Source: Ignavibacteriota bacterium
GTDB lineage: Bacteria; Bacteroidota; Ignavibacteria; UBA10030
Reading direction: 5' to 3'
Length of the DNA stretch: 64,000 bases
NCBI GenBank assembly: GCA_963727825.1
Contig: CAVSHO010000013.1
Coordinates: forward strand, 1-64,000
In this document: piece after piece, positions 4,292 to 55,663 of the stretch
Layout: each line of letters begins with the position of its first letter
Numbering within the stretch: position 1 is the stretch's first letter
The notes under the pieces: model-generated
Told to the model about the DNA's origin: nothing
The model's database searches: none
The model's input: only the letters and a program-made list of their open reading frames with translations
Position numbers and translations under genes: made by a program

Positions 4292-5405
4292 TTACTTCAG
4301 TAGGACCATCTTTTTAACCTCGCGATATAATCCTGCCGTTACAACATACAGGTAGATGCCGCTCCCCATTTGGACACCTTTGCAGTTCTTTCCATCCCAG
4401 ATCGTCATATAACATCCGGCATTTATATCAGCGCTCATCAACTGAATAATTTCGCGTCCGGTGATGTCGTATACTTTGACATCTGCGTAAGTTGCTAAAG
4501 GAACTGAAAATCGTATAGTCGTCAATTGATTAAACGGATTTGGATAGTTCTGTTCCACCTTAAATACATCTGGAATTTCTAGACAGGATATTGAACCAAT
4601 GGCGTTTTGAACTTGAACGTTTGTCTTGATAATGTAGTATCAATTCCGTCAGTTGCATCGACGTACCAGGTAAACTCGGTGTTCTCTTTCAGTGCTTGCT
4701 TCGTCAATGTAAGCGTAGTATCCGGAAGATTGCTAAAGCTCAAGTTGGAAAATGCACTACTGAGGTGGACATTATATCTTACAATGTCACCAGTATCAAT
4801 ATCGATTGATTTCGACCACACAAGTAAAACACTTAAGATAGTATCGATTATACTCTCATTTTGTGGACCTAATAATTGGAAGGCTTTTGGAGCATTATTA
4901 ACTATAATCTTACCTGAATCAGTTTCGTTAGAATATATTTGTTCATTCCATCCCGCAATTCATTGCTGACAATGATAATAGGACTTGAACCACCGCGTAG
5001 TGCTGTAAATATTATAGTAAAAAGAGTACCAGAGCCGCTGACAGTCCCACCACCACAAATTGCTTGATCGACAGTGATCCTATTAGGTGCTGCTGGAGGT
5101 GGGGGTTGCGGTACAACACCAAGGAATACAGAATTTGAATTGTTTCCTTTCAGGAACGAGCCACCAATTATACTGCTATAGCGCAGAATTGTACTATCGA
5201 ATGCTAATGTCACACTTGAAGCAAAAAGATTTTCAGAACCTTCTACCTTAATATCAATAGTGGCTGTATGTGAGGGCTGCACTTTCATTGAAGAAGGTGA
5301 TACCATAACGATCGTTTTTATTTGTCCCTGAACGAAACTTTTCAAAGCAAGCAATTCTAGAGAAACGACGATAAGAAGACATAATTTTTTATTAAAAGCC
5401 TTCAC
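4292..5405 (-). CDS. T9SS cargo protein: signal peptide + cohesin-like domain + Ig/FN3-like domain + T9SS C-terminal sorting domain (two frameshifts)
   Basis: ORF pieces 4902-5405, 4579-4821 and 4292-4558 join after frame changes near 4935 and 4580. Cohesin-like ATIDIKV...SVTLAFDSTILRY...SGSGTLFTIIFTA; CTD QNYPNPFN...WDGKN...SGIYLY...KKMVLLK. Confidence 0.75.
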
Positions 5406-5791: not shown

Positions 5792-8518
5792 CTATTTCAA
5801 TAGCAACATTTTCTTTGTGCTGATAAAATCATGACCTGAATTCGATGTGGGATCAATTGCTCGTATCTGGTAAAAATAAATGCCAGATGGGACTAACTGT
5901 TGCTGTGTATTCCTCCCATTCCATTCAACTTGATAATAGCCAGCATTCTGTTGTTTGTTTATAAGTGTCACAACTTCACGTCCGAGAATATCAAATACAT
6001 TCAACTTGACATAACTATCCGCTGACAGCTCGTAATTGATAGTCGTAGAGGGATTAAAAGGATTAGGATAGTTTTGAATCAATGCATATGTAGTCGGAAC
6101 ATTAGAAGTTAGAGCTTCTTTTGAGCCTATAAGAATTTGGATGTCGTGATTATTATCATCTCGTGCTTTTACAGATTGAATATTAATATCATAGTTGTTC
6201 GATTTATAGCACTGCTTAAAAAACACATTGGCAAAAATTCCATCTTTTGTTAAACCATCATTTTCAGTGCCAACAACAGCAGCATCAAGAGTTATTATAT
6301 TGCCTTTCGCCTTTGCTGCCATAAAACAATATTCATGATTCATTTCGCCGCTTTTTTCATAACCTATATATTCCAGCGAAGTTGATGGATATACCAAGGA
6401 AATAGATAATGCACGAACATTCATATCAGCGCCTGAAATTAATAGTGGAACAGTTACAATACCATCTGTGCTTTGTGAAATTTGTTGAGTACCGAAGGAA
6501 AACAGGCGCCAAATTATATTTATGTAGTTGATTCATTGCAGTTTTTCCATATCCAATAGAGAAAATGGCAAGATCTTCAAATTGGATATGTCCGTCTTGG
6601 TTTGGCATTGCGAAGTAACTTCCAATAGAATTTGTCGGACCGATATCAAACTTTGCCTTGTAACCAGCAGGCACACCGTCGGATTCACTGAAGTAAGCTA
6701 AAGCAAACTGCACAAGATCGTCGAAGTTGATTTTGCCATCTCCACTTGTTGTTACATTATTCTGAGATGCAAAATCGCCAAGATAAAACTTTATGCATCC
6801 GGAGTGTGATGTAACCTGGATGTTCTGTTGTGCATCACTATCAAAATATCTGAAGTCAGTCGCAGTAGTTGTGATTTCATTGAAACCCGGCCGTATGATT
6901 GTAAAATCCAATTGTGCCAAATATTTTCCTGCTGACGGTAATATATTGAGGCTTGAACTCGCACCCGTATTAACCCTCTTTTTACCAGCAGAAATATCTT
7001 GAGTTGCAAAGAAGTCAAACATATTTCCGTTTGTTACTGACAGGTTTGCCATAGAGGTATCCCAATTGATTTCAAACTCAGATGCACCAATGGATTGCGA
7101 TCCTACTGGCACTACATAAAATGTCATTTTGGGAGAATTGTATGTCCAATCATCGGCGCCATAAATAGTTCCATTACCAATTCCTGAATGCGGAAAGACA
7201 ACTGCGTGATTATCATCTGGTTGGGACGGATCACTTGTTATAAATAATTCTAATCCAGCAGAAGATCCCGTACCGCTGACAGCGATATTTCTTGTGCCTG
7301 CACCTGTGGATGTGCATGCAATGTTTCCTGAAAAAGAATTAGCGGTGGTAGGGTTGAAGCGTACATCAATACTAGCTCTCCGTAACGGAACCGTTCGTTT
7401 GTGTAAGAGCTATTGGATTAATGGAAAAAGGATTAGTACCTATTCTAATTTCAAAGCCTATAGGTGGAGTAATGTCGATATTGTTTGTTAAGTTCAGTCC
7501 GCTTACAATAAAATTTTGTGGATTAGAAGAATTGCCAACTGGAATAGTGCCGAACGAAGGAAGTGATGAAGTACTGACTGTAATAGTTGGAGTGTTTGTA
7601 CTAGTCAACAAAACACTAAAATTATCGAACTGACTTGTTTGTGCTACAGCCGTTGCATAGGCCCAATAAAAACCAAAATGCGTTAATGATAGTTGAGGTG
7701 TATGTATTATCCAAAGTTATTGAACCTTTTTGATTTGTAACTCCTGCTGATGGATCTGTCCAACTTGAGGATCCATCATCACGAACAAACAGCGACCAAT
7801 TGTCTCCATTTGGCTCATATTTTACACGCACACTCACATAGTTATTTACAGCGCTGATATCATTGTTCCCGGAGCTGATAAGATTTGTGATTGTACCGGT
7901 AAGTCCTCCCGCAAATTTTACTAATCGAATTGGATCCGGAGTGCCAGAACTACCAAACACGACTGCATATCCATTCCCTGCACCTGTGCCGGTAAAAATG
8001 CCATTGGAAATCCCTAAAATAATTGCTGTTCCATAATTGCTTGCCGCCAGCCCTGAGGGATTTGTCGTTCTATTGTATCTATAATTAAACGTCCATTCAA
8101 TATTATATGTGTTTAAATGAAGCGTCTGATTATAAGTATTCAAAAAATCTTGAGTCATTCCGGAAACGTATACTATCCCATCACCATTAGTAGCCGAAGA
8201 GGCATCATTTGTAAGCTCTAAGAAGGACCCGGTATTTATGCTTGCACCACCATCTCCAGCTGTTACTGTGATGGAATATGTCGTTGGTGTTCCCGAGGTG
8301 AGATTAGCTCTGTTGAAATTATCGAAGAATACCTGGGTTTGTCCCATAGCTTTTGTCCCAATGAACGCGAAGAGAAATATTGCTACCAGGCCTGCCCATG
8401 CGTAAATTCCCCTAATAGATTTTTTCGCGGTTTCGATGTCAGTAGCCGCCAGAAATTTCTCTGCTTCCGGCTGAAAATATAGATTCCTTGACAAGAAAAG
8501 AGAGTAGTAGCGTTTCAT
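5792..8518 (-). CDS. Large T9SS cargo: extended signal peptide, beta-rich N domain, ASH-type Ig domain, cohesin-like, dockerin-like, second cohesin-like, CTD (three frameshifts)
   Basis: Pieces 7622-8518, 7372-7611, 6426-~7370 and 5792-~6495 join in order. ASH-like IDVRFNPTTANSFSGNI..VSGTG; duplicated Ca-loop DGKINFDDL / DGHIQFEDL; CTD QNYPNPFNPSTTI..KKMLLLK. SD AAGGAGG precedes ATG 8518. Confidence 0.75.
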
Positions 8519-14150: not shown

Positions 14151-17100
14151 TTACTTTACCACTGCTATTTTAATAAACACTACACTGCTATTATTCGCGC
14201 CGCGTGCTTCAACACGAGCAAGATAGACACCGCTTTGTATATTCGAGACATTCCATGTTACCTCATTATCCATTCCTGCTGTTCCTCGTCCAGACAATTC
14301 TGTTATCTTCATACCAGAAAGGTCAAGAATAGTGATCGTAACATTTGCATTCTCACTTGTAAAGTACCGAATTTGGGTTGACTGGCCATAAACAGGATTC
14401 GGCCAATTATATACGCGTGATTTCGGAAAGAATTCTGTGCTAATCGGAATAATTTGTGGAGTTACGCTCACATCAACATTACTGTGCCGTTCATCGCCTA
14501 AATGCTGCCACCACGTTAATGAGCCTGACGTTACCGAGCTCGAAGTAAGGAATGCATCTAATGAACCGCTATCTGAAAGAACGGCTATGCCCAATTTATT
14601 AGATGGACTCGTATATGCTACAGAAAATGCATTTCCCGAAGAAGTTACCTGCACCGGAAAGCCCGAAAGCAATTTTCCGTTTTTATCATACACCCATATT
14701 TCACCATCATTCGTTAGGAGAACAATTTCAGGTTTAGCATCCCCGTTAAAATCCAATACAAGCGGCGTTCCAGTAAACTCCAAGCCAGTTCGCGCTTGTA
14801 TTGGAAAACCATCGAGCATGAAACCGTTACGATTAACGACTGAAAGAGAATTTACAGATTGGATAAGTACATCCTTTTCTCCATCACCATCAATATCGGC
14901 AACGGCAAGCTCGCTAATTATAGAACCTGGAACGGTGATCTCATAATTCTTTTGAGTTAATGATTGATTATAAGAAATTACTCTGCTTCCGTTTTTTTCT
15001 GCAGAGATTATATAATTTCCTTTTGGCGATACTGCTGCCGCAAGTATCCAGCACTTTGATGTTACCGGCAAATCTACAGTCGAAGACTGACCGTAAATTC
15101 TATTGCCTGATGTAAAAAAATATTCATTTGACTTTGCTGATGAAGCTGTAGGCAGTAATGTGATTGACCTTACTGAATCGGTTCCAACTGAACGGTTAGA
15201 AATTATGTCGCCATTTGTGTTAAACTGATATATTGTCCCTCCATCCGCACCAACAAGCAGAGATAATGAATCCAATTGTGCGAAACAGGGAGAAGTTGTG
15301 AAGCGATGAGTGTACGTTTTCTTGGAACTGTCAACTGAATTATAACCGCTGTGAAATGAAAGCTTAAAGATTCTCAAAACGCTATCTTGCACGCTCGCGA
15401 CTATTTCGGTCGAATCAGGTAACACATTTACGGCAACGCCGTTGGCAGCTGTAGTAGCAGATAGGAGATTTGTTGTATTACCTAATAAGCTTTGTCCATT
15501 GTTTTGAAGCGAATAAATTCCATTGCTTGTTGGAAGATAGAGATGATTTTTCGTTGACGTTGGAAATACGTTTACACTTGTGTTTTTAAATGCACGGTGC
15601 ATCAAAGAATCTCGTTGAAGTATTTGGTTCCCAATTTCTACTGTCAGTGTCATACGAGGCGATCTTGCGCTAAAATTCTTAATCGTAACTAAACTTGCAG
15701 CGCCGGAGAAGCTGTTGCTATTCGGAAACGAATTCTGATCGAAGATATTTTTATATAGTGGTGCTGAATTACCACTAAACCAGCAATCAAGCGGGCTTCC
15801 ATTTTGTGTCCCATAGCCAGGATCCGACATAGCTACATAGTCTTGACCAATATCTTGTGAACCATCCGCTTCTTCCAAACTAACACCACGATGATCCAGA
15901 TTCGCATTGACAGAGTTTGTGCTCAATCCCGCCTGAATTACATTCTCATCAATATGCCAAATAAGAATTCCGCCGCCGTCGTACAGATGCGTCGTATCCA
16001 TTAATCCAGGCAATGCCCAATCAAAATTGCTCACATCTATAACCGAACCACTGATTCCGCTCACATTATAATAACAAAAACTAGCTATATCCTGATCGAA
16101 GTGTCGCCAGCTTGTATCTCCTTTTGCACTCGCAATTTTTATATCTAAACCGGTCCCTCTAGGATTTCTATTTCTGTTCTCTATAAGAAAATATTCTGAA
16201 GAAGTTATTGGAATTTTATAAACTGTGTCTTGCTTCATAGAATATTTTAATCCAACAGCTGGCACGGAAAGATTTATTGTCTGGTTTCCAATTGTAATTG
16301 GTGTAAGCCATCCCAAATATATTTTTTCCCAAGCGCATGGTTCTGGTGGAAAAAGTCCATTGTAGGCAAAGATTGCCGCGCCGTCCATTAATCCAAACTG
16401 TCCAATGCCCGACGTTCCTGTTTTTGTATCGAACAAATCCGGCAGCCCTAAATAACTTCCTAAGGATGCGGCAAACATGCCATTGATACTGAATTGATAT
16501 GTCTGGGTGCCTGAATTCGTTGGAAGATCGCGCGACTCAGTCTCTGGCAGAATGATTGTGTTTTTGATGAAACCATTCTCGAAGCCCTGAAAAGATGATT
16601 GTCCCAGTGCGACTGCAAATGCGGTTGAATCAAGATACAACGAAGGTATATCATACGGAGTAGGATTGTATCCTATAGAACCCACCAAATCAAGATCACG
16701 CCCTGTTCCCGCATGGAAAATGACAAATGCATCGTAATTCTGAAAATTGATTTCTGGATATAACGAATCTGCAATCTGCCAGCTCTCTCTTGCGAGATCA
16801 GCGAGTTTACTGTTGTCATCCGAATTTGTCGGCGGAGAATAGGATTTCATCTGTTTCGAAAGTGTAATTCGCTTGCTATCGCCATACACCGCGCCTGTGA
16901 TGGTAAGCTTTCCATTTGAAACTTTATGGAAATAATTTTCAACAAATTGAATTTTATTGTTAAAGTACAACGAATCATGCGGTGGTGGATCGATCAGCGT
17001 ATCTGTAGCTGTAGTTGAAATCTCTTGGAGTTTTCCATTCCCGGTTGTCTGATCATCAGCGTCAGTCTGAAATTCTACCATGATGGCAAGAATGCGAACT

Positions 17101-17243
17101 GTATCCCGCATTGTCATAATATTTGATTGCGAACCAGCGTAATTTTTAATTTTTCTAATCGCTTGTGGAAAGCCGTTTCGCTGTTGCGCAAATAATAAAT
17201 TGCTAATAAGGAGCAATATAAAAATTGCCCATGCTCGTGTCAC
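14151..17243 (-). CDS. M6 (immune inhibitor A)-like metalloprotease homologue lacking HExxH, with FG-GAP/VCBS repeats and T9SS CTD
   Basis: M6 signatures ILAIMVEF, IFHAG.G, LGLPDLFD, GIGQFGLM, P.EPCAWEK..LGW, YFLIENR and GILIWHIDE; ADIDGDGEKD and DFNGDAKPE repeats; YNWPNP..SGVYL CTD. Confidence 0.8.
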   Translation of the reverse strand: MTRAWAIFILLLISNLLFAQQRNGFPQAIRKIKNYAGSQSNIMTMRDTVRILAIMVEFQTDADDQTTGNGKLQEISTTATDTLIDPPPHDSLYFNNKIQFVENYFHKVSNGKLTITGAVYGDSKRITLSKQMKSYSPPTNSDDNSKLADLARESWQIADSLYPEINFQNYDAFVIFHAGTGRDLDLVGSIGYNPTPYDIPSLYLDSTAFAVALGQSSFQGFENGFIKNTIILPETESRDLPTNSGTQTYQFSINGMFAASLGSYLGLPDLFDTKTGTSGIGQFGLMDGAAIFAYNGLFPPEPCAWEKIYLGWLTPITIGNQTINLSVPAVGLKYSMKQDTVYKIPITSSEYFLIENRNRNPRGTGLDIKIASAKGDTSWRHFDQDIASFCYYNVSGISGSVIDVSNFDWALPGLMDTTHLYDGGGILIWHIDENVIQAGLSTNSVNANLDHRGVSLEEADGSQDIGQDYVAMSDPGYGTQNGSPLDCWFSGNSAPLYKNIFDQNSFPNSNSFSGAASLVTIKNFSARSPRMTLTVEIGNQILQRDSLMHRAFKNTSVNVFPTSTKNHLYLPTSNGIYSLQNNGQSLLGNTTNLLSATTAANGVAVNVLPDSTEIVASVQDSVLRIFKLSFHSGYNSVDSSKKTYTHRFTTSPCFAQLDSLSLLVGADGGTIYQFNTNGDIISNRSVGTDSVRSITLLPTASSAKSNEYFFTSGNRIYGQSSTVDLPVTSKCWILAAAVSPKGNYIISAEKNGSRVISYNQSLTQKNYEITVPGSIISELAVADIDGDGEKDVLIQSVNSLSVVNRNGFMLDGFPIQARTGLEFTGTPLVLDFNGDAKPEIVLLTNDGEIWVYDKNGKLLSGFPVQVTSSGNAFSVAYTSPSNKLGIAVLSDSGSLDAFLTSSSVTSGSLTWWQHLGDERHSNVDVSVTPQIIPISTEFFPKSRVYNWPNPVYGQSTQIRYFTSENANVTITILDLSGMKITELSGRGTAGMDNEVTWNVSNIQSGVYLARVEARGANNSSVVFIKIAVVK

Positions 17244-17498: not shown

Positions 17499-18614
17499 TT
17501 AATTCACATCACCACCCCAGCCAATTGAGAGTGACAGACGCAGCGTTCCGTCTAGAGGATTTTGACCATCTATAGCGCTAAGGTACCCAAAATCGAATCC
17601 ATAGATATCGTATCGAAGACCGGCACCGAATTCCATAAACTTGCGATTCCCTTCTCTCGGGTCCTCATAAAAATATCCAGCACGCAATCCAATTAGCTTC
17701 GGTGAGCCGTACCAATATTCCAATCCTAATGCAGAATCGAATCTGCGTATTTGTTCGCTTATATTTCCGTTTGACCAAGTAGTAAAGAACGCTTTGTAGA
17801 ATTCATCAGATGAAGTTCCATTACGAGTCACCAGTAATCGATTTACTTCTACAGTTGCATTTATATTATTGTAGTCACTTTCTAGAACTTTGTACGCAAT
17901 ACCAAGACGAAGATTCATTGGTAAAGGGTCTGCTTGTGCTTTGTCGATATATGACATTTTAGGACCGATATTAGCAATATTCATGCCAAAACTAATGTCC
18001 TTACCAAGATCAACACCTGTTAAAGGAATACGCATTACAATCGGGCGATACATTAATCCAATATCGAAACAAAATCCAGTTGCAGTACCGCTTCCTTGTT
18101 CTTGCCCGGCTCCTTGATTTGCAAGATGAGAATAGATAATTCTTGCACTTGTGCCAATTCCCAACTCGTCGGCGAGCTTTGTGCTGTATGTGGCGGCAAC
18201 AGCCATCTCATATCCGTTAAAAGTTCCGATCACATCTGGTGAATCACTTGTTCTATTAAACTCACCAAGATTTTCATAAGTCAATTGAAAAGCTATTATT
18301 CCATCTAAATATTCCACAGGTTGCTTGTAGGCAAGATGAGCAAGCCAGAGATCCGATAATCCTAAACCCGGAAGCCAATTTGTGTGTGTCATTGCCAGTT
18401 CAGAGCCTTTTTGGAATGCAAGTCCGGCAGGATTCCAAAATGTAGCCCAAACATTATCAGCTAACGCCACACCGGTCTCCCCCATTCCGCTTGCTCTCGA
18501 ATCTGGTACGATTAGCAAAAACGGTACTGCTGTCGTTATTGCACTCTGTGCCAGCACTGTTTTTATAGCACAAATTCCTAATACGGTTATTACTAAAATC
18601 ATTTTTTTTATCAT
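17499..18614 (-). CDS. porV: T9SS outer-membrane shuttle PorV
   Basis: N-terminal ITTAVPFLLIVPDSRASGMGE..ATFWNPAGLAF, LPMNLRLG and GLEYWY..GLRAGYFYE. Immediately downstream of porU, with a GGAGG SD. Confidence 0.9.
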   Translation of the reverse strand: MIKKMILVITVLGICAIKTVLAQSAITTAVPFLLIVPDSRASGMGETGVALADNVWATFWNPAGLAFQKGSELAMTHTNWLPGLGLSDLWLAHLAYKQPVEYLDGIIAFQLTYENLGEFNRTSDSPDVIGTFNGYEMAVAATYSTKLADELGIGTSARIIYSHLANQGAGQEQGSGTATGFCFDIGLMYRPIVMRIPLTGVDLGKDISFGMNIANIGPKMSYIDKAQADPLPMNLRLGIAYKVLESDYNNINATVEVNRLLVTRNGTSSDEFYKAFFTTWSNGNISEQIRRFDSALGLEYWYGSPKLIGLRAGYFYEDPREGNRKFMEFGAGLRYDIYGFDFGYLSAIDGQNPLDGTLRLSLSIGWGGDVN

Positions 18615-18744
18615 AATATGTAACCCTCCTAACAATGATGAATGCTAATATAGTTACTAATCAGCGTTAAAAATATGTATGGACACAATATCTATATGCA
18701 ATGTTTTTCTAATAATACATTTTATAGAACTTGCTAATTATTGA

Positions 18745-21700
18745 TCAACGCATTACAGCAAGCTTACCGATCGTTTCGTTTGAGCGCTGACTATTTTTGT
18801 CGCGTACAACTAATTTATAGAAGTAGACACCATTTGCAAGCGTGTTTCCATCGTTATCTTTTCCATCCCATGGTATCCTCACAGAGCTTTCTGCAATATT
18901 TTGGTGATCGATATTTGCAATTAAACGTCCTGCAACTGAATAAATTTTAATTTGTACATCTATCGGATCATATGAAGTGCGTTCGAATGTGAAAGTTGTC
19001 GCATTTGAGAAAGGATTTGGATAATTCACGACATTGAACATTGCAAAATCGTCAGCGGAGTGCACTTCAAAATAGGTTTCGGCGGTTGATGAATTATTCT
19101 GGATATCCCATGCTTTCACGCTCAACGTATATTTCCCATCGCTAAGATTAGATAATGGATAATCTACTTCTCCTTTTTTATAGTTATCAAGACTGCTGTG
19201 ATAATAACTGGAAAGATCGAATGTCTGTACCGGGTTATTGATGGTTGCCGATAACTGATGTCCTACGCCAACAGTCGACGTATTAATACCGCTTTCATCT
19301 TCAAGCTTTACAATAATAGTCGGATTACTCTTGACAACATCGCCCGGACGAAATGCTATGGTATCGAGATAGAGCGTTATCACCGGTCCCACTGTGTCTC
19401 TGGCTGTTGTAGTATCTATGCCATTAATCATTACGTTTTCTATGCTACCCGATGCGTCCGATTGACCGCTCCAAGCGTACATTGAAATTCGTGCATTTTT
19501 TCCTATTGTAACATCTTTGGGAACAGGAACAATCGCTGTATAATGTCCGTTGGTAATAGATACATCACCACAGTATAACGAGCTGCCGGTTAATTTAAAT
19601 ATGAATGTTCCAATTCCTTGCACGATGGAATCAATTCTTTGCGAATCAAACAGTTGGAGTGTGCCTTCGCCGGTAAACGAGGATATCAGTGTATTATTTT
19701 GTTTTACAGTACCTGCAATACGTGCAAGTCCTAATGATTTTATCTGGATAGTATCATTGCCTAATACACCACTGCCATTTATACTATCGACCGCAGCATT
19801 ATTTTTTGGCATCAATAGGCGAACAGTAGGATCACCAAATAGATGAAATTTTTGGGTATTCAATTGGTCCGCATTAATAGATTTTGCAAAAAGGCACGCA
19901 TCACCTATTCTCGGAAACTGATTATCAGAATCTTTTTGTAAGAGATAATTAAACAAGGATTCATCCAGCGCAAAATTTGGAGGATCATAGACTACGCGGG
20001 CTGGAGAAAAATCAGCGATAGAACCGCCTTGTTCCATCGTGACCAATTGTTCTCCCGAGCTGACTTCAGTTGGATTATCATAACAACCGTACCTGCATGT
20101 CGCCGTTATGGTAAATGTCAATCTATTTTTATTTGAGAGCTGCGGCAGATCGACTGCTTGTGTAAAGACATCTTCATGCGCCCACAGGAATTCATTACCA
20201 TGTCCAATATAATTAGTAATAATCGTTCCCGAATTAATCGCGTTAACAATTGCCTTATTTACATCCGGCTTCCTGCGGCCTCCTGCGCTGTTCACGGTTG
20301 GATATGCAATTTCATAAATTTTGTTTTCTTCATAATTCACAAGCGCACTTGTCCCAGCTATTTCTTCCGAATGGTCAGTGTATACTGAACCATCATCTGA
20401 CGTCGAAGTCAATCCATCATCTGAAACAAATGTAATCTTATTTCGCCATGGATCTAAAGGAGAATTTGTTTCATAAGAAATGACTTTATCTACCATACTA
20501 GCAGCATCTTTGAGACTGCGTACTGGAAGTCGTCCGATTGCAAGTGCATAGGAATTTGAATATCCAAGCATAACGAATTGATCATCGCATGGGTATGAAT
20601 CAACTGTTTCAAAAGATTCTTCCGTTTCGTAGGGCGGCATCCAGTTACTTTGTGTTGTGCTAATATTTTTATAATCAAAATGTCCGGAACCGAACAACAA
20701 AACATATCGCGGTTTTGGATCTGCCCAATTGTTTTGAGTGTAATTTATGAATTCCCTTATTGACAATGGATCTGGAAGACCGCCGGAAAATTCATTATAG
20801 ATTTGATGAATGTCCACCACTAATGTATTTAGACTATCATTTAATTTACGATAATCTCTTAATCTGTTTGCTTCGGATATAAATTCGGTTGGAGAAATAA
20901 TAATGAAATCAATCTGATCTTGAACATCGTGAAGATTATTGGGAGTAAATTTCGCGACCTTTGTCGCTGTTGTGGGAGTCAAATAGCCATTCTTACCAAT
21001 TACTGCGATCTCACGTACGTTTCCAGGAATCTGTTGAAGTTGAAATGTGCAAGAAGAACCCGTCTGATTGAATTTTATTTGTTTCACATCATTATGATCT
21101 GTTACATCGAAAGCGCGGACTTCTGACGAAAGATTACTTACACTGTATTGAATTAACCCTGAAGTGTCTGCTGTTGTGAATAAAAGCGCATCGTTCAAAG
21201 CTTCAAAATACCGCTGATAATAAATTTCTAACCAATCTAACCAAGTTTCTGAAGCTTGATTTGTGGTTACCACCTGAATTTTAACTATACTCGAATTTGG
21301 ATTAATCGGCACTCCTCCTGTCGCAGTAACCGGTAGATCCTCCGCATACGGGGTGGTTTCACCGTCTCCCAATTCCCCGCTTATTATAGGTGCTGCCCAC
21401 ATTGATATTTGTTGAATAAGGTTACCACTCTCATATATATTCAATAAATCGGTGGATGCAGAGCGGCGAATGAAGTTAAATGCATAATTGATTTGTGAAT
21501 TTGAGACTATACCTGGAAGTGAATTGTAATACGTGTCGGTAGTATCAGTTCCTGAAAATTCCTTTCCTGCCCATCTTCTACCTGAGCTTAAAAGATTATA
21601 TATTTCTTTCTTAAAAAATATTTTTTCCTGAAAATATTGCTTTGATGTCGAAGTCGGATTTGGAGAGATAATTGAATCCATCTGCTCGCCTGTTCCCTGG

Positions 21701-22725
21701 CTCACAGTAAAAAAATAGCAGTTAGTATCAGTGTAGGGATTAATATAATGTTGAAAACTTTTACTGCCTGCATCGTAGTTCCAGCCTTTTACTCCGCGTC
21801 CATAGAAAACGACATAATCCGCTGTGTCTATGCCGGTGCTGTTCTTTCGCACAACAAGACGTGGAATTTCCACTAATGAATCTGGCCTCGGATCAGTGTT
21901 GTTATCCGGAACTACCAATCCGCCATTTCCGAACAATCGAACTGAATTAATATCATTGACCGAAATATTTAGATTATGCAAATAAGTATTATCTATTTTG
22001 TACATACCATCATTTGCTACATTGATTCGATACCAATCTCCTTGTGCAAATGGAGAATTTCCTGACGTCACTTTGTGCAAACCCGCTTGCATTGTTTTGG
22101 CAAGCTGTGCTTTTTTCGGTAGTTCCCCTCTAAGAAAACAAGTGGAACGCAAGCCATTTTGAAAAGCATCTTTGAATTCAAACCTGATTGTTATACGTGA
22201 ATATATCCTTACTCTTTCTTTATCTATCACTTGGATAGGATGCATTACAATGGTTGCAGTATAACCAATGCTTGTTTCTCCAACACGTGCCACTTTTGCA
22301 AGTGCTTTTTGTGGTGAAGATCGCGCATCTTGGATAAATTTTGCATCATCGTAGCTTTCACTTACTCCAAAATCTTTTAGGGATTTTATTGTCGGTTTAG
22401 GTAGAAGTTTTATCGAATCTCTAATTTGAAATTCGCTCCGCAGGACTTGAAATGAATATCGCGTTGAAGGGAAGAACAATAGAATATTCCGAGAAAATTC
22501 TGCCTGTCCGGTAGAATCGAATGTTAATTGGTTTTCGAAAAAATGAAACCGTGTAAAAATACCACCATGAATCCCAGTCACACGTTCAGTTGTAATATGG
22601 GGTGTAAATTCAAGAACAACGGATTGTTGGTCTTCACTCAAGATTCGGATATCTGTCAACGGCTGGGCGGTGCCCATCAGCGTTCCGATTAATAATAGGA
22701 TTGTAATTGTAAAAGTATTTTTCAT
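18745..22725 (-). CDS. porU: T9SS sortase PorU (C25 gingipain fold)
   Basis: GDWYRI..DGMYKI, IYNEFSGG.PDP..IR, IGRLPV, catalytic NYIGHG and ITATC, DTVGPVI..DESGIN..GVGH, CTD NYPNPF. Adjacent to porV. Confidence 0.92.
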   Translation of the reverse strand: MKNTFTITILLLIGTLMGTAQPLTDIRILSEDQQSVVLEFTPHITTERVTGIHGGIFTRFHFFENQLTFDSTGQAEFSRNILLFFPSTRYSFQVLRSEFQIRDSIKLLPKPTIKSLKDFGVSESYDDAKFIQDARSSPQKALAKVARVGETSIGYTATIVMHPIQVIDKERVRIYSRITIRFEFKDAFQNGLRSTCFLRGELPKKAQLAKTMQAGLHKVTSGNSPFAQGDWYRINVANDGMYKIDNTYLHNLNISVNDINSVRLFGNGGLVVPDNNTDPRPDSLVEIPRLVVRKNSTGIDTADYVVFYGRGVKGWNYDAGSKSFQHYINPYTDTNCYFFTVSQGTGEQMDSIISPNPTSTSKQYFQEKIFFKKEIYNLLSSGRRWAGKEFSGTDTTDTYYNSLPGIVSNSQINYAFNFIRRSASTDLLNIYESGNLIQQISMWAAPIISGELGDGETTPYAEDLPVTATGGVPINPNSSIVKIQVVTTNQASETWLDWLEIYYQRYFEALNDALLFTTADTSGLIQYSVSNLSSEVRAFDVTDHNDVKQIKFNQTGSSCTFQLQQIPGNVREIAVIGKNGYLTPTTATKVAKFTPNNLHDVQDQIDFIIISPTEFISEANRLRDYRKLNDSLNTLVVDIHQIYNEFSGGLPDPLSIREFINYTQNNWADPKPRYVLLFGSGHFDYKNISTTQSNWMPPYETEESFETVDSYPCDDQFVMLGYSNSYALAIGRLPVRSLKDAASMVDKVISYETNSPLDPWRNKITFVSDDGLTSTSDDGSVYTDHSEEIAGTSALVNYEENKIYEIAYPTVNSAGGRRKPDVNKAIVNAINSGTIITNYIGHGNEFLWAHEDVFTQAVDLPQLSNKNRLTFTITATCRYGCYDNPTEVSSGEQLVTMEQGGSIADFSPARVVYDPPNFALDESLFNYLLQKDSDNQFPRIGDACLFAKSINADQLNTQKFHLFGDPTVRLLMPKNNAAVDSINGSGVLGNDTIQIKSLGLARIAGTVKQNNTLISSFTGEGTLQLFDSQRIDSIVQGIGTFIFKLTGSSLYCGDVSITNGHYTAIVPVPKDVTIGKNARISMYAWSGQSDASGSIENVMINGIDTTTARDTVGPVITLYLDTIAFRPGDVVKSNPTIIVKLEDESGINTSTVGVGHQLSATINNPVQTFDLSSYYHSSLDNYKKGEVDYPLSNLSDGKYTLSVKAWDIQNNSSTAETYFEVHSADDFAMFNVVNYPNPFSNATTFTFERTSYDPIDVQIKIYSVAGRLIANIDHQNIAESSVRIPWDGKDNDGNTLANGVYFYKLVVRDKNSQRSNETIGKLAVMR

Positions 22726-22769
22726 AAAAAAAAAGCCAAACGAGAGAAAATATACTGTCTCGTTCGGCT
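22726..22769 (-). terminator. Intrinsic terminator directly upstream of the porU start codon
   Basis: RNA AGCCGAACGAGA-loop-UCUCGUUUGGCU (12 bp, one G-U) followed by a U tract that runs into AUG. Confidence 0.8.
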
Positions 22770-22905
22770 AAACTCTTCTTTATTTAGAGATCGTCAGCCG
22801 AACTTGAAAAGGTCTGTACTTCCAACATAATCCCTATAGTATAAAACACGCCGAAATACTTTAGGAATAAACCTTTATCAAGCCCTCGATACAATCTCCA
22901 TAAAC
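22726..22905 (-). promoter_or_regulatory. Structured porU leader (candidate attenuator/riboswitch, or sRNA)
   Basis: Mutually exclusive helices read by eye; see the finding. Confidence 0.6.
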
Positions 22906-22930
22906 AATATTATTCTTTTTAAACTGATAA

Positions 22931-22959
22931 AAGATAGCGAATGAAAAGAAGATTGTCAA
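22931..22959 (-). promoter_or_regulatory. Sigma70-type promoter for the porU leader
   Basis: TTGACA (22959-22954), 17-nt spacer, TATCTT (22936-22931). Confidence 0.65.
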
Positions 22960-23178
22960 GCAATTGATTCGCGATTTGCTCAAACTATTCTATAGCTGAT
23001 CTATGTTTTCTGTTATTTAGAAGAATTTTAACAATAGAACTCCACAATTGCTCTATTCTATTTTTTGATGAATGATATTTTCAGAAAAGATGATTAGAAA
23101 TAAATGATTTGCTTTGCAGTTCTGGCAATATTTTGCTAAATTATATTTATCGAAAGCATTTATCCTTATTTAGGTAAT

Positions 23179-24666
23179 ATGAGTAGACCTCTTAACATTC
23201 TTTTTGTCACCAGCGAAGTATATCCCTTCGCAAAAACTGGCGGGCTTGCTGACGTTTCCGGCGCCCTTCCTAAAGCAATCAAAGATCTCGGACACGAAAT
23301 TCGCATAATGATGCCGCGATACCGATTTATTGGTGAACGGAAGTTTAGATTGCATGACATCATACGTTTACACGAAATACCGATTCCCGTTGGAAGCATC
23401 GTCGAACTTGGGAATGTCAAATCTTCTTTCATTAATAATTTGAAAGAAAAAGTTCAGGTTTATTTTTTAGACAATACGAATTTTTATGGCCGCGATGGCA
23501 TTTACCAAAGTCCAACGACAAAGAAAGATTACAAAGATAATGATGAACGATTCATCTTTTTTTGCCGTGGTGTGATAGAAACATTAAAACGATTAGGGTG
23601 GCAGCCGGATATTATCCATTGCAACGATTGGCAATCTGGTTTAATACCTGCATACCTCAAAACCATGTGCATGGCTGATCCATTCTTTAAATCGATGAAG
23701 ACGGTTTTCACTATACATAACATGGGATATCAAGGTGCCTTTCCGCAGGAATCATTTGCAAAATCGAATTTGCCGATAGAGTTATTTGATACGAATGGCG
23801 TAGAAGCGTATGGCTGCTTTAACTTCCTTAAAGCGGGCATCTTTTTCTCTGATGCTATTACAACAGTCAGCGAAAAGTATGCTGACGAGATTTGCAAATC
23901 TCCTGAAATCGGAGCTGGACTCAATGGCTTACTTACTGCACGACGAAAAGACTTAAGCGGAATTCTTAACGGTATTGATTACCAAATTTGGGATCCGGCG
24001 ACCGATGAATACAGTTTCCGAAAATTTGACGTCAAATCTATTGAAGCTAAAGTTGACAATAAACGCGCGTTAATGACAAAGTTAGGAATGGAATTTTCCG
24101 AGGATCGTCCTGCCATCGGGATAATTAGCCGCCTTGCGGATCAAAAAGGATTTGATTTAATCTTTGAAATTATAGAAGACATCATTCGGCTTGATGTCCA
24201 GATAGTCATGCTTGTCGCAGGTGAAAGAGACTACGAGAAGAAAGTAGAAGCACTCCAAAAGAAATATCCGAAGCGAATTTTTGCATTTATCGGTTATGAT
24301 AATGAACTAGCGCATATGATTGAAGCGGGAACGGATATGTTCCTCATGCCGTCTAAGTATGAGCCTTGTGGATTAAACCAGATGTATAGCATGCGGTATG
24401 GCACTGTTCCAATAGTCCGTGCAACTGGCGGATTAGACGACACAGTAGAAGATTATATCGGTAATGGAAAAGGCACAGGATTTAAGTTTGAAAAATATGA
24501 ATCTAAAGAGTTAATGAAAGTGATTCAGCGGGCTCTGAAGGTCTTCCAGCAACCTGAAGAATGGAAACGAATAATGCGAAATGGTATGATGTGCAATTTT
24601 TCATGGGAAAATTCAGCACGAAAGTACATCAACCTCTATAAAGACCTTTTAAAACATAATGTATGA
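23179..24666 (+). CDS. glgA: Glycogen synthase (GT5)
   Basis: SEVYPFAKTGGLADV, IIHCNDWQ, FTIHN..YQG, MPSKYEPCGLNQM, TGGL.DTV. Confidence 0.95.
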   Translation: MSRPLNILFVTSEVYPFAKTGGLADVSGALPKAIKDLGHEIRIMMPRYRFIGERKFRLHDIIRLHEIPIPVGSIVELGNVKSSFINNLKEKVQVYFLDNTNFYGRDGIYQSPTTKKDYKDNDERFIFFCRGVIETLKRLGWQPDIIHCNDWQSGLIPAYLKTMCMADPFFKSMKTVFTIHNMGYQGAFPQESFAKSNLPIELFDTNGVEAYGCFNFLKAGIFFSDAITTVSEKYADEICKSPEIGAGLNGLLTARRKDLSGILNGIDYQIWDPATDEYSFRKFDVKSIEAKVDNKRALMTKLGMEFSEDRPAIGIISRLADQKGFDLIFEIIEDIIRLDVQIVMLVAGERDYEKKVEALQKKYPKRIFAFIGYDNELAHMIEAGTDMFLMPSKYEPCGLNQMYSMRYGTVPIVRATGGLDDTVEDYIGNGKGTGFKFEKYESKELMKVIQRALKVFQQPEEWKRIMRNGMMCNFSWENSARKYINLYKDLLKHNV

Positions 24667-26028: not shown

Positions 26029-27285
26029 ATGCATAATTCTAAAATAAAAATATTTCTATTTATCTTAATCGTCGTATTTCCGTCAATCACTTTTGCTGGC
26101 GGGTCTTCTTTCTCTCGATACGGCTTTGGTGATCTCTTATTTAACGGTGATAGTCGAACATATGCTATGAGTGGCACAGGAATTGCTTTTATAGACGATG
26201 GGTTTATTAACGGATTAAATCCAGCTGGCCTCGCACGTATTTCTTATACAAGATTTTCAGCCGGGCTGGAATACAATAATTTTTTTTCTAAAGATGAAAC
26301 TGGTTCTTCATCTTATTCTACAGGTGGATTACAAGGATTATCTTTTGCTTTCCCGATTTCAACAGAGAACGGAATTGTGATGTCTGCCGAATTCACTCCA
26401 TACAGCAAAGTAAGTTACGGCATTACTTCTTCTCTCTATGATACTTTAACACAATCAATAAAAAATGCAACATTTTATGGCAACGGAGGTCTTTCCTATA
26501 TTGGATTGGGACTTTCTGCATCTCCTTTAACGACACTGCACTTCGGTGCACGCGTAAATTACATGTACGGACGTACAGATCAGTATCAAACAACCGCTTT
26601 CGATAGCACGTATTTAGCTTCTACTACATTTGATCGTTCTGTCTATTATTCTGGTTTTACATTTACACTAGGAACAATTTATGAAGGTATAGCTGACCTT
26701 CTAAATATTCAAGCTCTGCATTCTTTTACAATTGGAGTAACTTTAACAACCGGCTGTTCTCTTAACGCTGATATACAACGAACGTACTCTGAAAGTTCCT
26801 ATATATCAGGCGATTCAACAGTCACAGAAAATGGTACATCTGGCATTCCTCTTTCTCTTGGCCTTGGACTTTCTTATGTATATCATAATCGTTACCGCTT
26901 TCTGGGAGATTTAGTAGCTGAAAATTGGGGAAATATTAAATATGTCGGATTAGATACTGTTGGTCATCGGAATTCTTTACGTGCAAGTCTAGGTTTCGAA
27001 GCACTTCCCGAAAAAGACGCAGATACTTTTGTAAAGCGTATCGTTTACCGAGCTGGTATTGCTTATAATGCAACATATTACGAAATCAATGGTGTTGGCA
27101 TTAATGAGTTTACTATAAGTGGAGGTCTTGGACTTCCGATGGGACCGGAATCTCAGCTAAATATTGGTTTGCAAATAGGATTACGCGGCAGTACAGATAA
27201 CCATCTAGAAAAGGATACAATCGTTCGTCTTTCAGTTGCAGTATCCGCAACTGAAATATGGTTTCTAAGATTCGAGGAGGAGTAA
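26029..27285 (+). CDS. Outer-membrane beta-barrel protein (FadL/OmpP1-like superfamily)
   Basis: Signal peptide, SSFSRYGFGD..AMSGTGIA..NPAGL plug motif, amphipathic strands, C-terminal EIWF. Confidence 0.7.
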   Translation: MHNSKIKIFLFILIVVFPSITFAGGSSFSRYGFGDLLFNGDSRTYAMSGTGIAFIDDGFINGLNPAGLARISYTRFSAGLEYNNFFSKDETGSSSYSTGGLQGLSFAFPISTENGIVMSAEFTPYSKVSYGITSSLYDTLTQSIKNATFYGNGGLSYIGLGLSASPLTTLHFGARVNYMYGRTDQYQTTAFDSTYLASTTFDRSVYYSGFTFTLGTIYEGIADLLNIQALHSFTIGVTLTTGCSLNADIQRTYSESSYISGDSTVTENGTSGIPLSLGLGLSYVYHNRYRFLGDLVAENWGNIKYVGLDTVGHRNSLRASLGFEALPEKDADTFVKRIVYRAGIAYNATYYEINGVGINEFTISGGLGLPMGPESQLNIGLQIGLRGSTDNHLEKDTIVRLSVAVSATEIWFLRFEEE

Positions 27286-27290
27286 GGCTT

Positions 27291-27730
27291 ATGATTGCAC
27301 TTGGCAGCGATCATGCAGGTTTTGATTACAAAGAACGTTTAAAAAACTTCTCGATAAAATCGAAAAAAACTATCAGGATTTTGGTACTTTTTCGCCAGAC
27401 TCTGTTGATTATCCCGATATTGCACACATGGTTTCAAATGAAGTCTCTTCTGGTAAATTTCAATGCGGTATTTTAATCTGCGGAACTGGAATCGGAATGT
27501 CGATTGTTGCCAACAAGCACAATGGAATTCGTGCCGCCGTTTGTGAATCTTCTGCATCAGCAAAGCTTTCACGTGAACATAATGATGCTAATATCCTTTG
27601 TTTGGGTGCGCGCATCACTGGTTGGGAAACAGCAACAGAAATTGTAAAGACTTTTTTAACAACTCCATTTAGCGGCGGAGAACGGCACATATGCCGAATT
27701 CAAAAAATCCATTCTCTTACAGGCTTATAA
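27291..27730 (+). CDS. rpiB: Ribose-5-phosphate isomerase B (frameshift in an A-run near 27342)
   Basis: MIALGSDHAG in one frame, DYPD..GILICGTGIGMSIVANK..REHNDANILCLGAR in the next. Adding one A restores the frame. Confidence 0.9.
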
Positions 27731-52637: not shown

Positions 52638-54729
52638 CTACATCATCGCTGTCGGTGGCGCTGGCTCATCTGCCCTGCCTGCTTTTGAAAGCGGAACATA
52701 AATTAAATACAATGCAAGCACTGCAAAGATCGGAATCGCTAACCAGGAAGCAATTGATTCAAATCCTCCGATTATCCAAAATTCTGCTTTACCACCCATT
52801 TGATCTTTGACAAAGACTACTGTTGCAATGAATAGCCCCATCAATGCTTCACCGGCGATTAATCCTGACGCAGATAAGATACCTGCATTTTCAACTCTTG
52901 CTTTTTGAGCATCGTTGTAGCCGCGCTTTGATGCACGTTTATCAACAAACCCGCGAATCAAACCACCGATGAAGATTGCAAATGTAGTTTCAAGTGGAAG
53001 ATACATGCCAACCGAAAACAACATCGGGCTTTTTACTTTTATTAAAATCATCGAAATTCCTAACGCAATACCCACAATAACCAACGGCCAGGCCATTTCG
53101 CCGCCGACGATTCCTTGTGATAAAGCCGCCATAAGCCCGGCTTGCGGTGCCGGAAGATTACTAGAACCAAATCCGCCGGTTAACGGATTGCTTGCTAAAT
53201 CTGAATTGTGAAGAATGTACAATGGAAAGAACATCACAAGTCCGGCAAGCACGACTCCAATAATGTCTCCAATCTGCATTTTCGATGGAGTGCCGCCAAG
53301 AATATGACCAACTTTAAGATCTTGCAGCATCTCTCCCGCAACTGCTGACGACACGCAGACGACAGCCGCAACACCAAGGACGGCGGCAACGCCTTCCTTA
53401 CCGTGGACACCAACAACAACCATGGTCAAAGCGGCAACCACAGTTGTGGCAAGTGTTAATCCGGAAATAGGATTATTAGATGAACCAATCATTCCGACTA
53501 GATTTCCAGAAACAGCTGCAAAGAAGAATCCAGTCACTAACATTACGACAGCAGCAAGAATTGCACCAAGAATCATATTCGTGAAATAAAAATAGAGTCC
53601 AATCATCAGAGCAAAAATAATTATGATACCAAGAATGACAACCTTAAATGATAAATCTTTCTGAGTGCGTTCTGTTGCGGCAGCTGCAGTTGCAGATTTC
53701 CTTACATCAGCAATACCGCGTTTAATGCCGAGAATCAAATTTTTCCGCATTTTCCATAGTGTATAGCATGCACCTACAAGCATTCCGCCAACTGCAATTG
53801 GACGAACAATATAACGATATAAATGCCCAGTAATTGCAGCCCATGCCGCAAGCGAATCTCCATTGCTTGCAACAAGGTACTTATCAATCATTTGTGGACC
53901 GAGGAAGAAAACAAGTAACGGAACAAACAACCCCCACGCTAAAACACCACCGGCAAAGTTTAAAGCGCCAAGTTCGGGTCCGATGATATAGCCGACACCA
54001 ATATAAGCTGGTGTTGCTGCTGGAGCGGAAATTGTGGTTATACCGCCGCCAAGAATTTTTTCAGAGTCGGAGCTTCAATCCAAGTTTCACAAAAGATTCT
54101 TTTAAACGTCCGACCATAACTTGAAAATCATTCGATGAATGAAATATTCCCAAACCATCCATCAGTTTAATGACTGCGCCCACTCCCATCGCTTTGAAAA
54201 GCGAAATCGCTGCATCTGCACCTCGCTGGCCTGCTTTGTGAATTTCCGATGCCGCAACAGATTCTGGAAACGGTAGAGATTGGTCTTCTACCATCACACG
54301 CCTAAGAACCGTTACAAACATTATTCCGAGCACACCGCCAAGAATCATTAATGCTACGGCGGTGAGATATTCCGTGAACATACTTTGCGTCGTGAAATTC
54401 CAAATACGCAAAATAACAAATGCCGGAATAGTAAAAATCGCACCTGCTGCTACCGACTCACCGATGGAGCCAACTGTTCTTGCGAAATTTTCTTCAAGAA
54501 TTGATCCTTTCATTATTTTTAATAGTGCCATACCAATAACTGCAGCTGGATATGTCGCCGCAATTGTCATTCCAGCTTTTAGACCGAGGTATGCATTTGC
54601 AGCGCCCAGAACAACGCACATCACCAATCCTATGAGCAGCGCTCTGATAGTAAATTCTTTCATATTCGTGTTCGACGGAACATACGAAACAAATTTCTTC
54701 CCGCTCACTCCATTATTAACATCTGCCAT
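52638..54729 (-). CDS. OPT/YSL-family oligopeptide transporter (frameshift near 54070)
   Basis: ANAYLGLKAG, FTIPA, LPFPES, GSSNNPISG, QDLKVG..GGTP, APQA, SGLIAGEA. The linking sequence reads GVGYIIGP in the second frame. Confidence 0.9.
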
Positions 54730-54762: not shown

Positions 54763-55663
54763 TCAATGGATAAAAATTGCTTTCGTAATATACCATGCCA
54801 TTTGTGGATTTTCCTGCAACCGGCGTGTCGAATAGGCATACCACTGTTCGCCAAACGGTACATAGATTCTTAAACGATGTCCATCTTTCACTATTTGATC
54901 GCGTCGCTTCTCGCGCACACCTAGAAGCATTTGAAATTCATACTGCTCTTTTTTCAATTCCATTTTATTAATCATTGCATACGCACCATTTATCAAATAA
55001 TCATCGTGCGTAGCAATGCCGACATAGCAACCGCTTTCAAGAATAATTTGCAGAAGTTTTAGATAATTGTCTTGAATTTCTTTTCGTTCTTTATAAGCTA
55101 TCGCTGGCTTTTCATTGTAAATCCCCTTGCACAAACGGATGTTTGCCCCTTCGTTTACTAAGAGCACGGACATCATCTTCGCTCCGATGAAGATACGCTT
55201 GAATGACAACACCTGTGTTGGTCAACCCATCCTTTTTAAGATGTTGATAAATGGCAAGTGTATCGTCGGTTGTTGTGGCATCTTCCATGTCGATCCGGAC
55301 GAAGTTGCCACACTTCTTCGCTTCTTCAATAATCGTCTTTATATTACGATAAGCTAGATCTTTATCAATCTTCAAGCCAAGTTGAGTTGGTTTAATAGAA
55401 ACATTAGATTTTAGATTATTCTCTTTAATTGATTTGACAATTTCAAGAATTTCTTTTTTGACTTCTTCGGTTTCAGCGACATTCTTCACATCTTCACCTA
55501 ACAAATCCATTGTCGCTATCATTGTCTTATTATTGAGCTCTTTGACGAGACGAACACCATCAGACAATGCAACTCCGGCGATATAACGCTTCGCTACCTG
55601 CCCTACAATTGCTTTTGGGATGAACGGAAATGCTGTCGTGATAAGCTTATTCAGTATTGGCAT
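54763..55663 (-). CDS. Monofunctional proline dehydrogenase (frameshift near 55160)
   Basis: RYIAG, DLLGE, SIKPTQLG, RIDMED, QAYL in the first frame; IRLCKG.Y.E, IATHD, EFQMLLG, YVPFG..Y..RRL.E.P in the second. Confidence 0.9.

Follow-up and report, generated by a model that had tools for sequence, protein, structure and literature searches.

What controls transcription of porU, the gene for the sortase of the type IX system for protein secretion (T9SS), in an Ignavibacteriota bacterium? The question is raised by the 453-nucleotide (nt) gap between glgA (23179-24666, plus strand) and the divergently oriented porU (18745-22725, minus strand) in a 64,000-nt stretch of contig CAVSHO010000013.1 (assembly GCA_963727825.1), the whole of which was analyzed and is called the window below. 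A sequence-only reading had proposed that the porU-proximal part of this gap, positions 22726-22959, encodes an RNA leader whose competing structures control porU and porV by attenuation. We find the element to be a genuine structured RNA, both conserved and strand-specific, and to be placed as the leader of porU-porV. Its layout suggests that, on balance, it probably acts as a lineage-specific, default-off transcription attenuator of an operon comprising porU, porV, and a gene for an M6-like cargo protein.

Read 5' to 3' on the minus strand, on which all features of the element lie, the region consists of a promoter, an A/U-rich tail, a rod of approximately 115 nt, a 14-nt linker, a 12-bp hairpin, a run of nine U residues (U9), and the porU ATG. 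The promoter (22931-22959) is of the sigma-70 type, with a -35 hexamer TTGACA (22959-22954) and a -10 hexamer TATCTT (22936-22931) separated by a 17-nt spacer (10 of 12 consensus matches), just where the sequence-only reading had placed it; transcription is predicted to start near 22925-22924. The 5' tail (22902-22925) is unpaired in the consensus fold. The rod (22786-22899), the putative anti-antiterminator, appears in both the minimum free energy (MFE) fold and the RNAalifold consensus, and is built from helices P1 (22899-22891/22794-22786), P1b (22889-22886/22801-22798), P2 (22883-22878/22807-22802), P3 (22876-22869/22815-22808), and P4 (22868-22862/22836-22830), the last being an AUUCCUA/UAGGGAU cap; it also carries a variable apical hairpin (22861-22837) and a 14-nt asymmetric bulge (22829-22816). 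An A-rich, variable linker (22772-22785) leads from the rod to an intrinsic-terminator-like hairpin (22726-22769), in which a 12-bp stem (22769-22758/22745-22734) with a GCC/GGC base closes a 12-nt loop. In this hairpin AGCCGAACGAGA pairs with UCUCGUUUGGCU, and the U9 run (22734-22726) abuts the porU ATG at 22725. Overlapping both structures is a 10-bp alternative helix, the candidate antiterminator (22762-22803), formed by GUUCGGCUGA (22803-22794) and UUAGCCGAAC (22771-22762); P1, P1b, and P2 of the rod bury its 5' arm, and its 3' arm doubles as the terminator 5' arm. The earlier description of three mutually exclusive helices is therefore borne out, and the positions given for the rod (outer arms, as checked, 22899-22891/22794-22786 and 22885-22869/22815-22800), for the 10-bp alternative helix, and for the hairpin with its U tract at the porU ATG all match our reading of the minus strand.

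Neither chance nor the opposite strand accounts readily for this structure. The 216-nt leader has an MFE of -63.2 kcal/mol, compared with -42.7 ± 4.0 kcal/mol for 200 dinucleotide shuffles (z = -5.19), none of which was as stable. Folded as minus-strand RNA the same DNA reaches -58.5 kcal/mol, versus -38.3 kcal/mol as plus-strand RNA, and 7 of the 45 consensus pairs in the window are G-U (3-7 per sequence across nine genomes), about the number, "eight or so," that had been noted before. The stronger fold and the G-U pairs together argue that the minus strand is the one transcribed; a plus-strand RNA was rejected, its fold being 20 kcal/mol weaker and the G-U pairs fitting the minus strand. Shuffling the upstream 154 nt 5000 times gave a 10-bp stretch able to pair with the hairpin 5' arm in only 0.52% of cases. 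When we scanned the 64 kb for hairpins followed by T runs, the leader hairpin was the strongest of six (-16.1 kcal/mol, T9); a standard terminator scan did not list it because its loop exceeds 8 nt. The possibility of a repeat or mobile element was also rejected, as a blastn search of the window turned up no further copy.

Is the element conserved where porU is? A PorU protein scan of species-representative genomes yielded 58 loci, a set to which cultured Ignavibacterium and Melioribacter do not belong. Ten of these come from close relatives (Ignavibacteria-type metagenome-assembled genomes whose PorU is 49-83% identical), two of which (L004 and L010) are fragments with only the 3' part of porU. 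The window and the eight related loci that retain DNA upstream of porU make up our nine-sequence set. In all eight of the latter the element occupies the same position (72-89% DNA identity; PorU 51-81% identical), with promoter, rod, alternative helix, U9, and ATG common to every one. Both promoter hexamers with their gap-free 17-nt spacer, GUUCGGCUG, AGCCGAACGAGA, U9, and the ATG are identical in nine of nine sequences. Column identity is 0.92-0.99 in the stems (0.92-0.95 in those of the rod), as opposed to 0.55-0.59 in the 5' tail (0.55), the apical loop (0.56), the linker (0.55), and the terminator loop; the bulge, at 0.74, is intermediate, and there is almost no variation in P2-P4 or in portions of the bulge and loop (UUCCUAAAG, UAGGRAUU). 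Conservation in the gap falls into two blocks, one next to glgA (23178-23099) and the other running from the -35 region to the ATG (22965-22726). It begins abruptly at the -35 hexamer, and the approximately 130 nt upstream (23098-22966) are unalignable. The glgA-adjacent block, with column identities of 0.69-0.90 in eight genomes and no Rfam match at threshold, is presumably the promoter and 5' untranslated region of glgA.

Pairing is conserved along with sequence. We scored a hand-written structure of 45 pairs over the nine sequences (403 cells): 97.8% of the cells of the rod and terminator are paired, versus 32-55% when the partners are slid by 1-3 columns, and the 11 counted pairs of the terminator are intact in 100% of cells. 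The alternative helix is paired in 98.9% of cells, and when every alignment column was compared with every other it emerged as the longest helix common to the nine sequences. A scan of all columns for additional conserved helices or a pseudoknot involving the bulge gave nothing past short U-tract pairings. Three of the 45 pairs, all in the rod, change on both sides (8 cells), 8 change on one side, and 30 never vary; the resulting covariation score of 0.122 was reached by none of 500 shuffles, a control that is lenient for related sequences. Finally, the terminator 5' arm, which the antiterminator shares, is invariant and the 3' arm varies, a pattern that would fit a double pairing constraint.

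Does transcription of porU have to pass through the leader? By match alone the promoter is not significant, since 1.1 kb holds five promoter-like sites compared with 3.9 ± 2.0 in shuffles; it derives its weight from being invariant in nine of nine genomes, not from its score. A promoter scan of the minus strand inside the leader found no promoter-like sigma-70 site. An extracytoplasmic function (ECF)-like promoter (GAAC...CGT) within the hairpin was considered as a bypass and rejected, as in the alignment the CGT is found in only four of nine genomes, with spacers of 17, 19, 19, and 20 nt. A porU promoter that bypasses the terminator, which the sequence-only reading had regarded as fatal to its proposal, was thus searched for and not found. 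As glgA is divergent, no co-directional upstream gene is able to supply a porU transcript, and this, together with the lack of an internal leader promoter, suggests that porU would be expressed only via read-through.

These observations also bear on a different view of the locus, in which the region encodes an independent small RNA (sRNA) that is approximately 200 nt long and has a promoter and a terminator to itself, porU is served by constitutive leak, and the rod is a trans-acting or protein-sequestering body with no regulated switch. The conserved promoter, the strength of the terminator, and the rod, which is very stable and the default fold, would all suit an sRNA, as would the A-rich linker ahead of a U-tailed hairpin and the conservation of stem sequence beyond what pairing needs, as for contact with a partner. 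However, in nine of nine genomes the U tract runs right up to the porU AUG and leaves no room for another promoter, so the RNA is physically the porU leader; further, the invariant 10-bp alternative helix is unlikely to arise by chance (0.52%, as above) and would be useless to a plain sRNA, for which no target came to light, though no search was aimed at one. We therefore consider an sRNA of this kind rather unlikely.

Which of the competing structures prevails? In nine of nine sequences the combination of rod and terminator is favored by 4.9-15 kcal/mol over folds in which the antiterminator is forced, and when the chain is folded as it grows, the whole rod has formed by approximately nt 140, before the 3' arm of the antiterminator has been made. 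Since the rod is both favored and first to form, the default state is predicted to be "off," and a helix-disrupting trigger is required. The earlier proposal of attenuation thus holds in its switch architecture, but a default-off leader needs a trigger of a sort that it did not name.

We propose the following mechanism. The conserved sigma-70-type promoter would start an RNA of approximately 200 nt, the first 115 or so structured bases of which would fold into the rod. Four segments can be distinguished: (1) the rod 5' strand; (2) GUUCGGCUGA; (3) UUAGCCGAAC/AGCCGAACGAGA; and (4) UCUCGUUUGGCU with U9. By default, the 3' strand of the rod would hide GUUCGGCUGA, so that AGCCGAACGAGA would pair with UCUCGUUUGGCU to form the hairpin with U9; polymerase would then stop one base before the porU AUG, releasing a short RNA. 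Were the rod 5' strand kept unpaired, GUUCGGCUGA would instead pair with UUAGCCGAAC, no terminator would form, and transcription would continue into porU. The U-rich stretch before the porU AUG should also be less structured in this antiterminated state. Termination at the U tract, read-through, and their regulation are predictions of the model, as is the transcript start itself.

What might hold the 5' strand open? One candidate is a ribosome translating a mini open reading frame (mini-ORF) of 7-9 codons on that strand, which would make the element a four-segment leader-peptide attenuator. In the window the mini-ORF (22878-22901) reads AUG GAG AUU GUA UCG AGG GCU UGA (MEIVSRA*) and is followed by an in-frame UAA, so that it ends in tandem UGA-UAA stops. 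A canonical in-frame start is found in eight of nine genomes, being an ATG at the same column in six; L008 has a GTG at the usual column plus an in-frame ATG two codons upstream, and L002 has an ACG at the usual column and, likewise, an in-frame ATG two codons upstream. This "hand-over" of start codons within the poorly conserved tail is the sole evolutionary evidence for translation of the mini-ORF, which we regard as inferred. A Shine-Dalgarno-like motif precedes just 9 of the 36 large ORFs of the window, so the lack of one before the mini-ORF is not unusual.

The sequence-only reading had drawn attention to another ORF, a 14-residue upstream ORF at 22828-22784 that reads MLEVQTFSSSADDL. It is present, but it is not conserved, being full length only in the window and L003 (two of nine). 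Only four of its codons remain in L001 and L002, and in L005, L007, L008, and L009 no start codon aligns with its own; in L006, an aligned GTG at its start opens a different ORF of 11 residues. As this ORF is, moreover, on the wrong rod strand, it was rejected as a sensor.

Several observations weigh against a ribosome as the trigger. The mini-ORF of L001 has no canonical start. Across genomes the peptide is M-E-[IS]-[VIL]-S-[KR]-[ATI], with no repeated codon and no tandem regulatory codons. The conservation of the mini-ORF is confounded, because its frame and stops sit in structurally invariant columns. The mean unpaired probability of the porU start region rises only from 0.33 to 0.46 in the antiterminator state, a small gain. 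Lastly, a ribosome leaves the sequence invariance of P2-P4 unexplained.

That invariance, in double-stranded RNA, is typical of protein recognition, and attenuation could instead be controlled by a protein or a trans-acting RNA that binds the rod 5' strand or the apical domain, or that, like PyrR, stabilizes the rod. With energetics that favor the off state by default, a factor able to disrupt the helix is needed, and the three-structure layout is that of protein-controlled attenuators such as Bacillus subtilis pyr. On the other hand, no candidate RNA-binding regulator was found among the 61 ORFs of the window scanned against NCBIfam, the leader contains no repeated binding motif, and the Rfam models of PyrR and T-box leaders and of other protein- or tRNA-binding leaders gave no match. 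Control by such a factor is plausible but, in our estimation, improbable. Among possible triggers for the attenuator we would rank a ribosome on the mini-ORF as a slight favorite, ahead of a protein or RNA factor, with a small ligand that acts on the sequence-invariant P2-P4 part of the rod last, both alternatives being close.

A small ligand is what an OFF-type riboswitch would use: the rod, with P1-P4, its loops, and the 14-nt bulge, would be the aptamer, and ligand binding would lock P1, P1b, and P2 and cause termination. The layout is indeed that of an OFF riboswitch, in that the closing stem of the would-be aptamer overlaps the antiterminator, and the near invariance of P2-P4 and of the parts of the bulge and loop mentioned above (UUCCUAAAG, UAGGRAUU), matched by no known class, is what one might expect of a binding site. 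Yet the rod is favored by 4.9-15 kcal/mol and forms first without any ligand, to which a ligand would add nothing. In addition, the structure is a rod with no multi-helix junction and no detected pseudoknot, it occurs once per genome in the DNA scanned and in one narrow lineage, and the genes that it precedes encode secretion machinery and are neither metabolic nor transport genes. A riboswitch of this type strikes us as very doubtful. We give slightly more credence to a bolder idea, namely that the leader is a new orphan class of riboregulator for a secretion machine, in which P2-P4 would sense envelope or secretion status, through a small molecule or a factor, and gate the T9SS sortase/shuttle operon; we view it as speculative and offer it with little confidence.

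In keeping with the absence of a recognizable riboswitch consensus reported from the sequence, no known RNA family accounts for the leader. Rfam 15 gives no match at gathering score anywhere in the window. With E values up to 10, the region 22400-23500 gives six hits, none of which attains the gathering score (the best has 23.7 bits versus 40); four of the six overlap 22726-22959, all on the plus strand, so that within the leader its own minus strand is free of hits. Riboswitches, T-boxes, PyrR sites, ribosomal protein leaders, 6S, SRP, and the Bacteroidota/Chlorobi motifs were rejected on this basis, none reaching the Rfam gathering threshold.

Attenuation in general, whatever its trigger, must also be set against evidence that counts against it. 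The nine sequences all come from one syntenic family with two clades; given the gene order shared across the loci, they belong to one family and are not independent samples of wide diversity. Covariation is thin, and one of the three double-sided pairs amounts to one difference between the two clades. The antiterminator arms are invariant and so receive zero covariation support; the upstream regions of relatives, to which the sequence-only reading had looked for covariation, therefore bear out conservation and lend the rod thin covariation support from three pairs, but lend none to the antiterminator. The hairpin loop, at 10-13 nt across genomes, is longer than in textbook terminators and than the 3-8 nt in the definition used by the standard scan. 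Finally, canonical terminator-like sites are not enriched in positions 1-60000 (8, 20, and 23, compared with 12.0, 14.9, and 15.6 in shuffles), and reliance on intrinsic termination by this organism is therefore a presumption.

The lack of terminator enrichment lends something to a purely translational or stability role, in which the hairpin and rod would set the half-life of the mRNA or the access of ribosomes and no termination would take place. The base of the hairpin lies 8-9 nt from the AUG, no Shine-Dalgarno sequence precedes porU, and the accessibility of the start region does differ between the folds (0.33 versus 0.46). That difference is small, however, and an invariant U9 directly after a GC-based 12-bp stem is a classical termination signal. 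A translational effect is compatible with attenuation, and both could act together; as the whole explanation we judge it to have little chance of being right.

How widely is the leader distributed, and how is porU controlled elsewhere? A covariance model (R1) built from the nine sequences was run on the window and the 58 loci (784 kb). It recovered the nine training copies (167-196 bits) and otherwise only antisense self-matches and hits below 20 bits (best 18.3 bits, E = 0.067). The more distant Bacteroidota loci (L011-L058; Chitinophagales, Bacteroidia, and others) were represented by the 40 with a callable start, crudely taken as the first ATG after an upstream stop; L023 was dropped for want of an ATG. 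None of these 40 has a T run of at least 6 within 25 nt of the ATG, and none gave an R1 hit. In 31 of the 40, a CGTT lies 25-55 nt before the predicted porU ATG, most often at -38 (background, 10%), and often within AAATCGTTTATAT. This has the look of an ECF-type -10 element of porU that is conserved throughout the phylum. Such an element would fit the promoter-level control that the accessible text of PMC9723704 describes for Flavobacterium psychrophilum, where PorU is listed among the genes treated under promoters and alternative sigma factors and is induced by high osmotic pressure; T9SS genes are described there only as promoter-controlled, by PorXY/SigP and ECF-type promoters.

The sequence-only reading knew of no description of RNA-level control of T9SS genes, and none turned up in the literature that we searched: full-text searches, mostly at the level of abstracts and excluding supplements, returned no RNA leader, riboswitch, or attenuator for porU, porV, or the T9SS, and a search at abstract level for structured-RNA motifs in Ignavibacteria surfaced none described for the lineage. 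As far as these data go, the leader would represent a type of cis-acting attenuator that lies outside every curated family and is confined to one Ignavibacteria-type family.

The genes directly 3' of the leader are co-oriented. The first, porU, encodes a T9SS sortase of 1326 residues (Pfam Peptidase_C25, 9e-91; NCBIfam T9SS_sortase, 963 bits with a cut-off of 420). The second, porV (17499-18635, minus strand; Pfam PorV, 2.4e-36; NCBIfam T9SS_OM_PorV, 262.6 bits with a cut-off of 250), has a longest ORF that opens at a TTG (18635), although translation more likely begins at the ATG at 18614, which has an AGGAGG at a suitable distance upstream; porU has no Shine-Dalgarno sequence, whereas that of porV is thus strong. 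The third (14151-17243, minus strand) encodes an inactivated metalloprotease that is M6-like and T9SS-dependent and carries a C-terminal sorting domain (NCBIfam NF052323, 895.5 bits with a cut-off of 600). The order of a divergent glgA followed by porU, porV, and the M6-like gene is identical in all seven full-length related loci.

Other features of the window deserve mention. PorU has an N-terminal region of approximately 220 residues (residues 1-220; 22066-22725) that is present also in close relatives; distant PorU matches begin near residue 221, and the NCBIfam sortase model spans residues 226-1324, omitting this region. In the divergent cluster that includes glgA, the third gene (26029-27285, plus strand) matches the BamG family of beta-barrel assembly proteins (264 bits with a cut-off of 250) and is syntenic in seven of seven full-length related loci. 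Two short minus-strand ORFs, 4292-4558 (88 residues) and 5792-6424 (210 residues), bear T9SS type A C-terminal sorting domains and possibly represent small cargo proteins or gene fragments. An OPT oligopeptide transporter is split in two ORFs (52638-53930 and 54061-54729), as is a proline dehydrogenase (54763-55212 and 55112-55663), and an rpiB-like ORF (27428-27730) covers only profile positions 51-145; these are either (i) frameshifts or pseudogenes, or (ii) assembly errors in the source genome.

If the leader does gate porU-porV, a deep-branching relative of the Bacteroidia tunes the sortase/attachment step of the T9SS by premature termination, the signal can be approached experimentally through a compact 200-nt element, and a well-defined family is added to the few structured regulatory RNAs of Ignavibacteria-type bacteria. 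If the mini-ORF is the trigger, leader-peptide attenuation extends outside amino-acid metabolism; if the leader is instead an orphan riboregulator, type IX secretion would have its first known sensor at the RNA level.

How, then, does the porU leader compare with known systems? With transcriptional OFF riboswitches such as SAM-I, FMN, and TPP it shares a conserved structured domain and an overlap of the closing helix of that domain with an antiterminator that itself overlaps a terminator. It differs from them in being a rod whose 19 bp of closing helices form without ligand, in matching no Rfam riboswitch, and in occurring at a single locus in a single lineage. The PyrR-controlled pyr attenuators of Bacillus likewise have three structures, with an upstream stem-loop that sequesters the 5' arm of the antiterminator. 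In the pyr system the antiterminator wins by default, whereas the anti-antiterminator of the porU leader is far more stable than its antiterminator without any factor; moreover, the porU leader has no match to the Rfam PyrR site at E values up to 10.

Leader-peptide attenuators occur in amino-acid operons, as exemplified by the trp, his, leu, and pheA leaders of Escherichia coli. Like these, the porU leader has four segments with 1:2, 2:3, and 3:4 pairings, of which a stable 1:2 forms first, a short ORF on segment 1, and an intrinsic-terminator-like hairpin whose U tract immediately precedes the first structural gene. Unlike these, it has a mini-ORF whose peptide is without tandem regulatory codons, which lacks a start codon in one of nine genomes, and whose stop is separated from segment 2 by approximately 75 nt, an additional conserved apical domain lying in the interval; and its operon encodes secretion machinery, not biosynthesis. 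Compared with the ECF-sigma and PorXY-SigP control of other Bacteroidota, which the accessible text of PMC9723704 places at the promoter level and which goes with short leaders, the family described here has a sigma-70-type promoter and a 200-nt structured leader; here, as in those bacteria, porU would be singled out for dedicated regulation.

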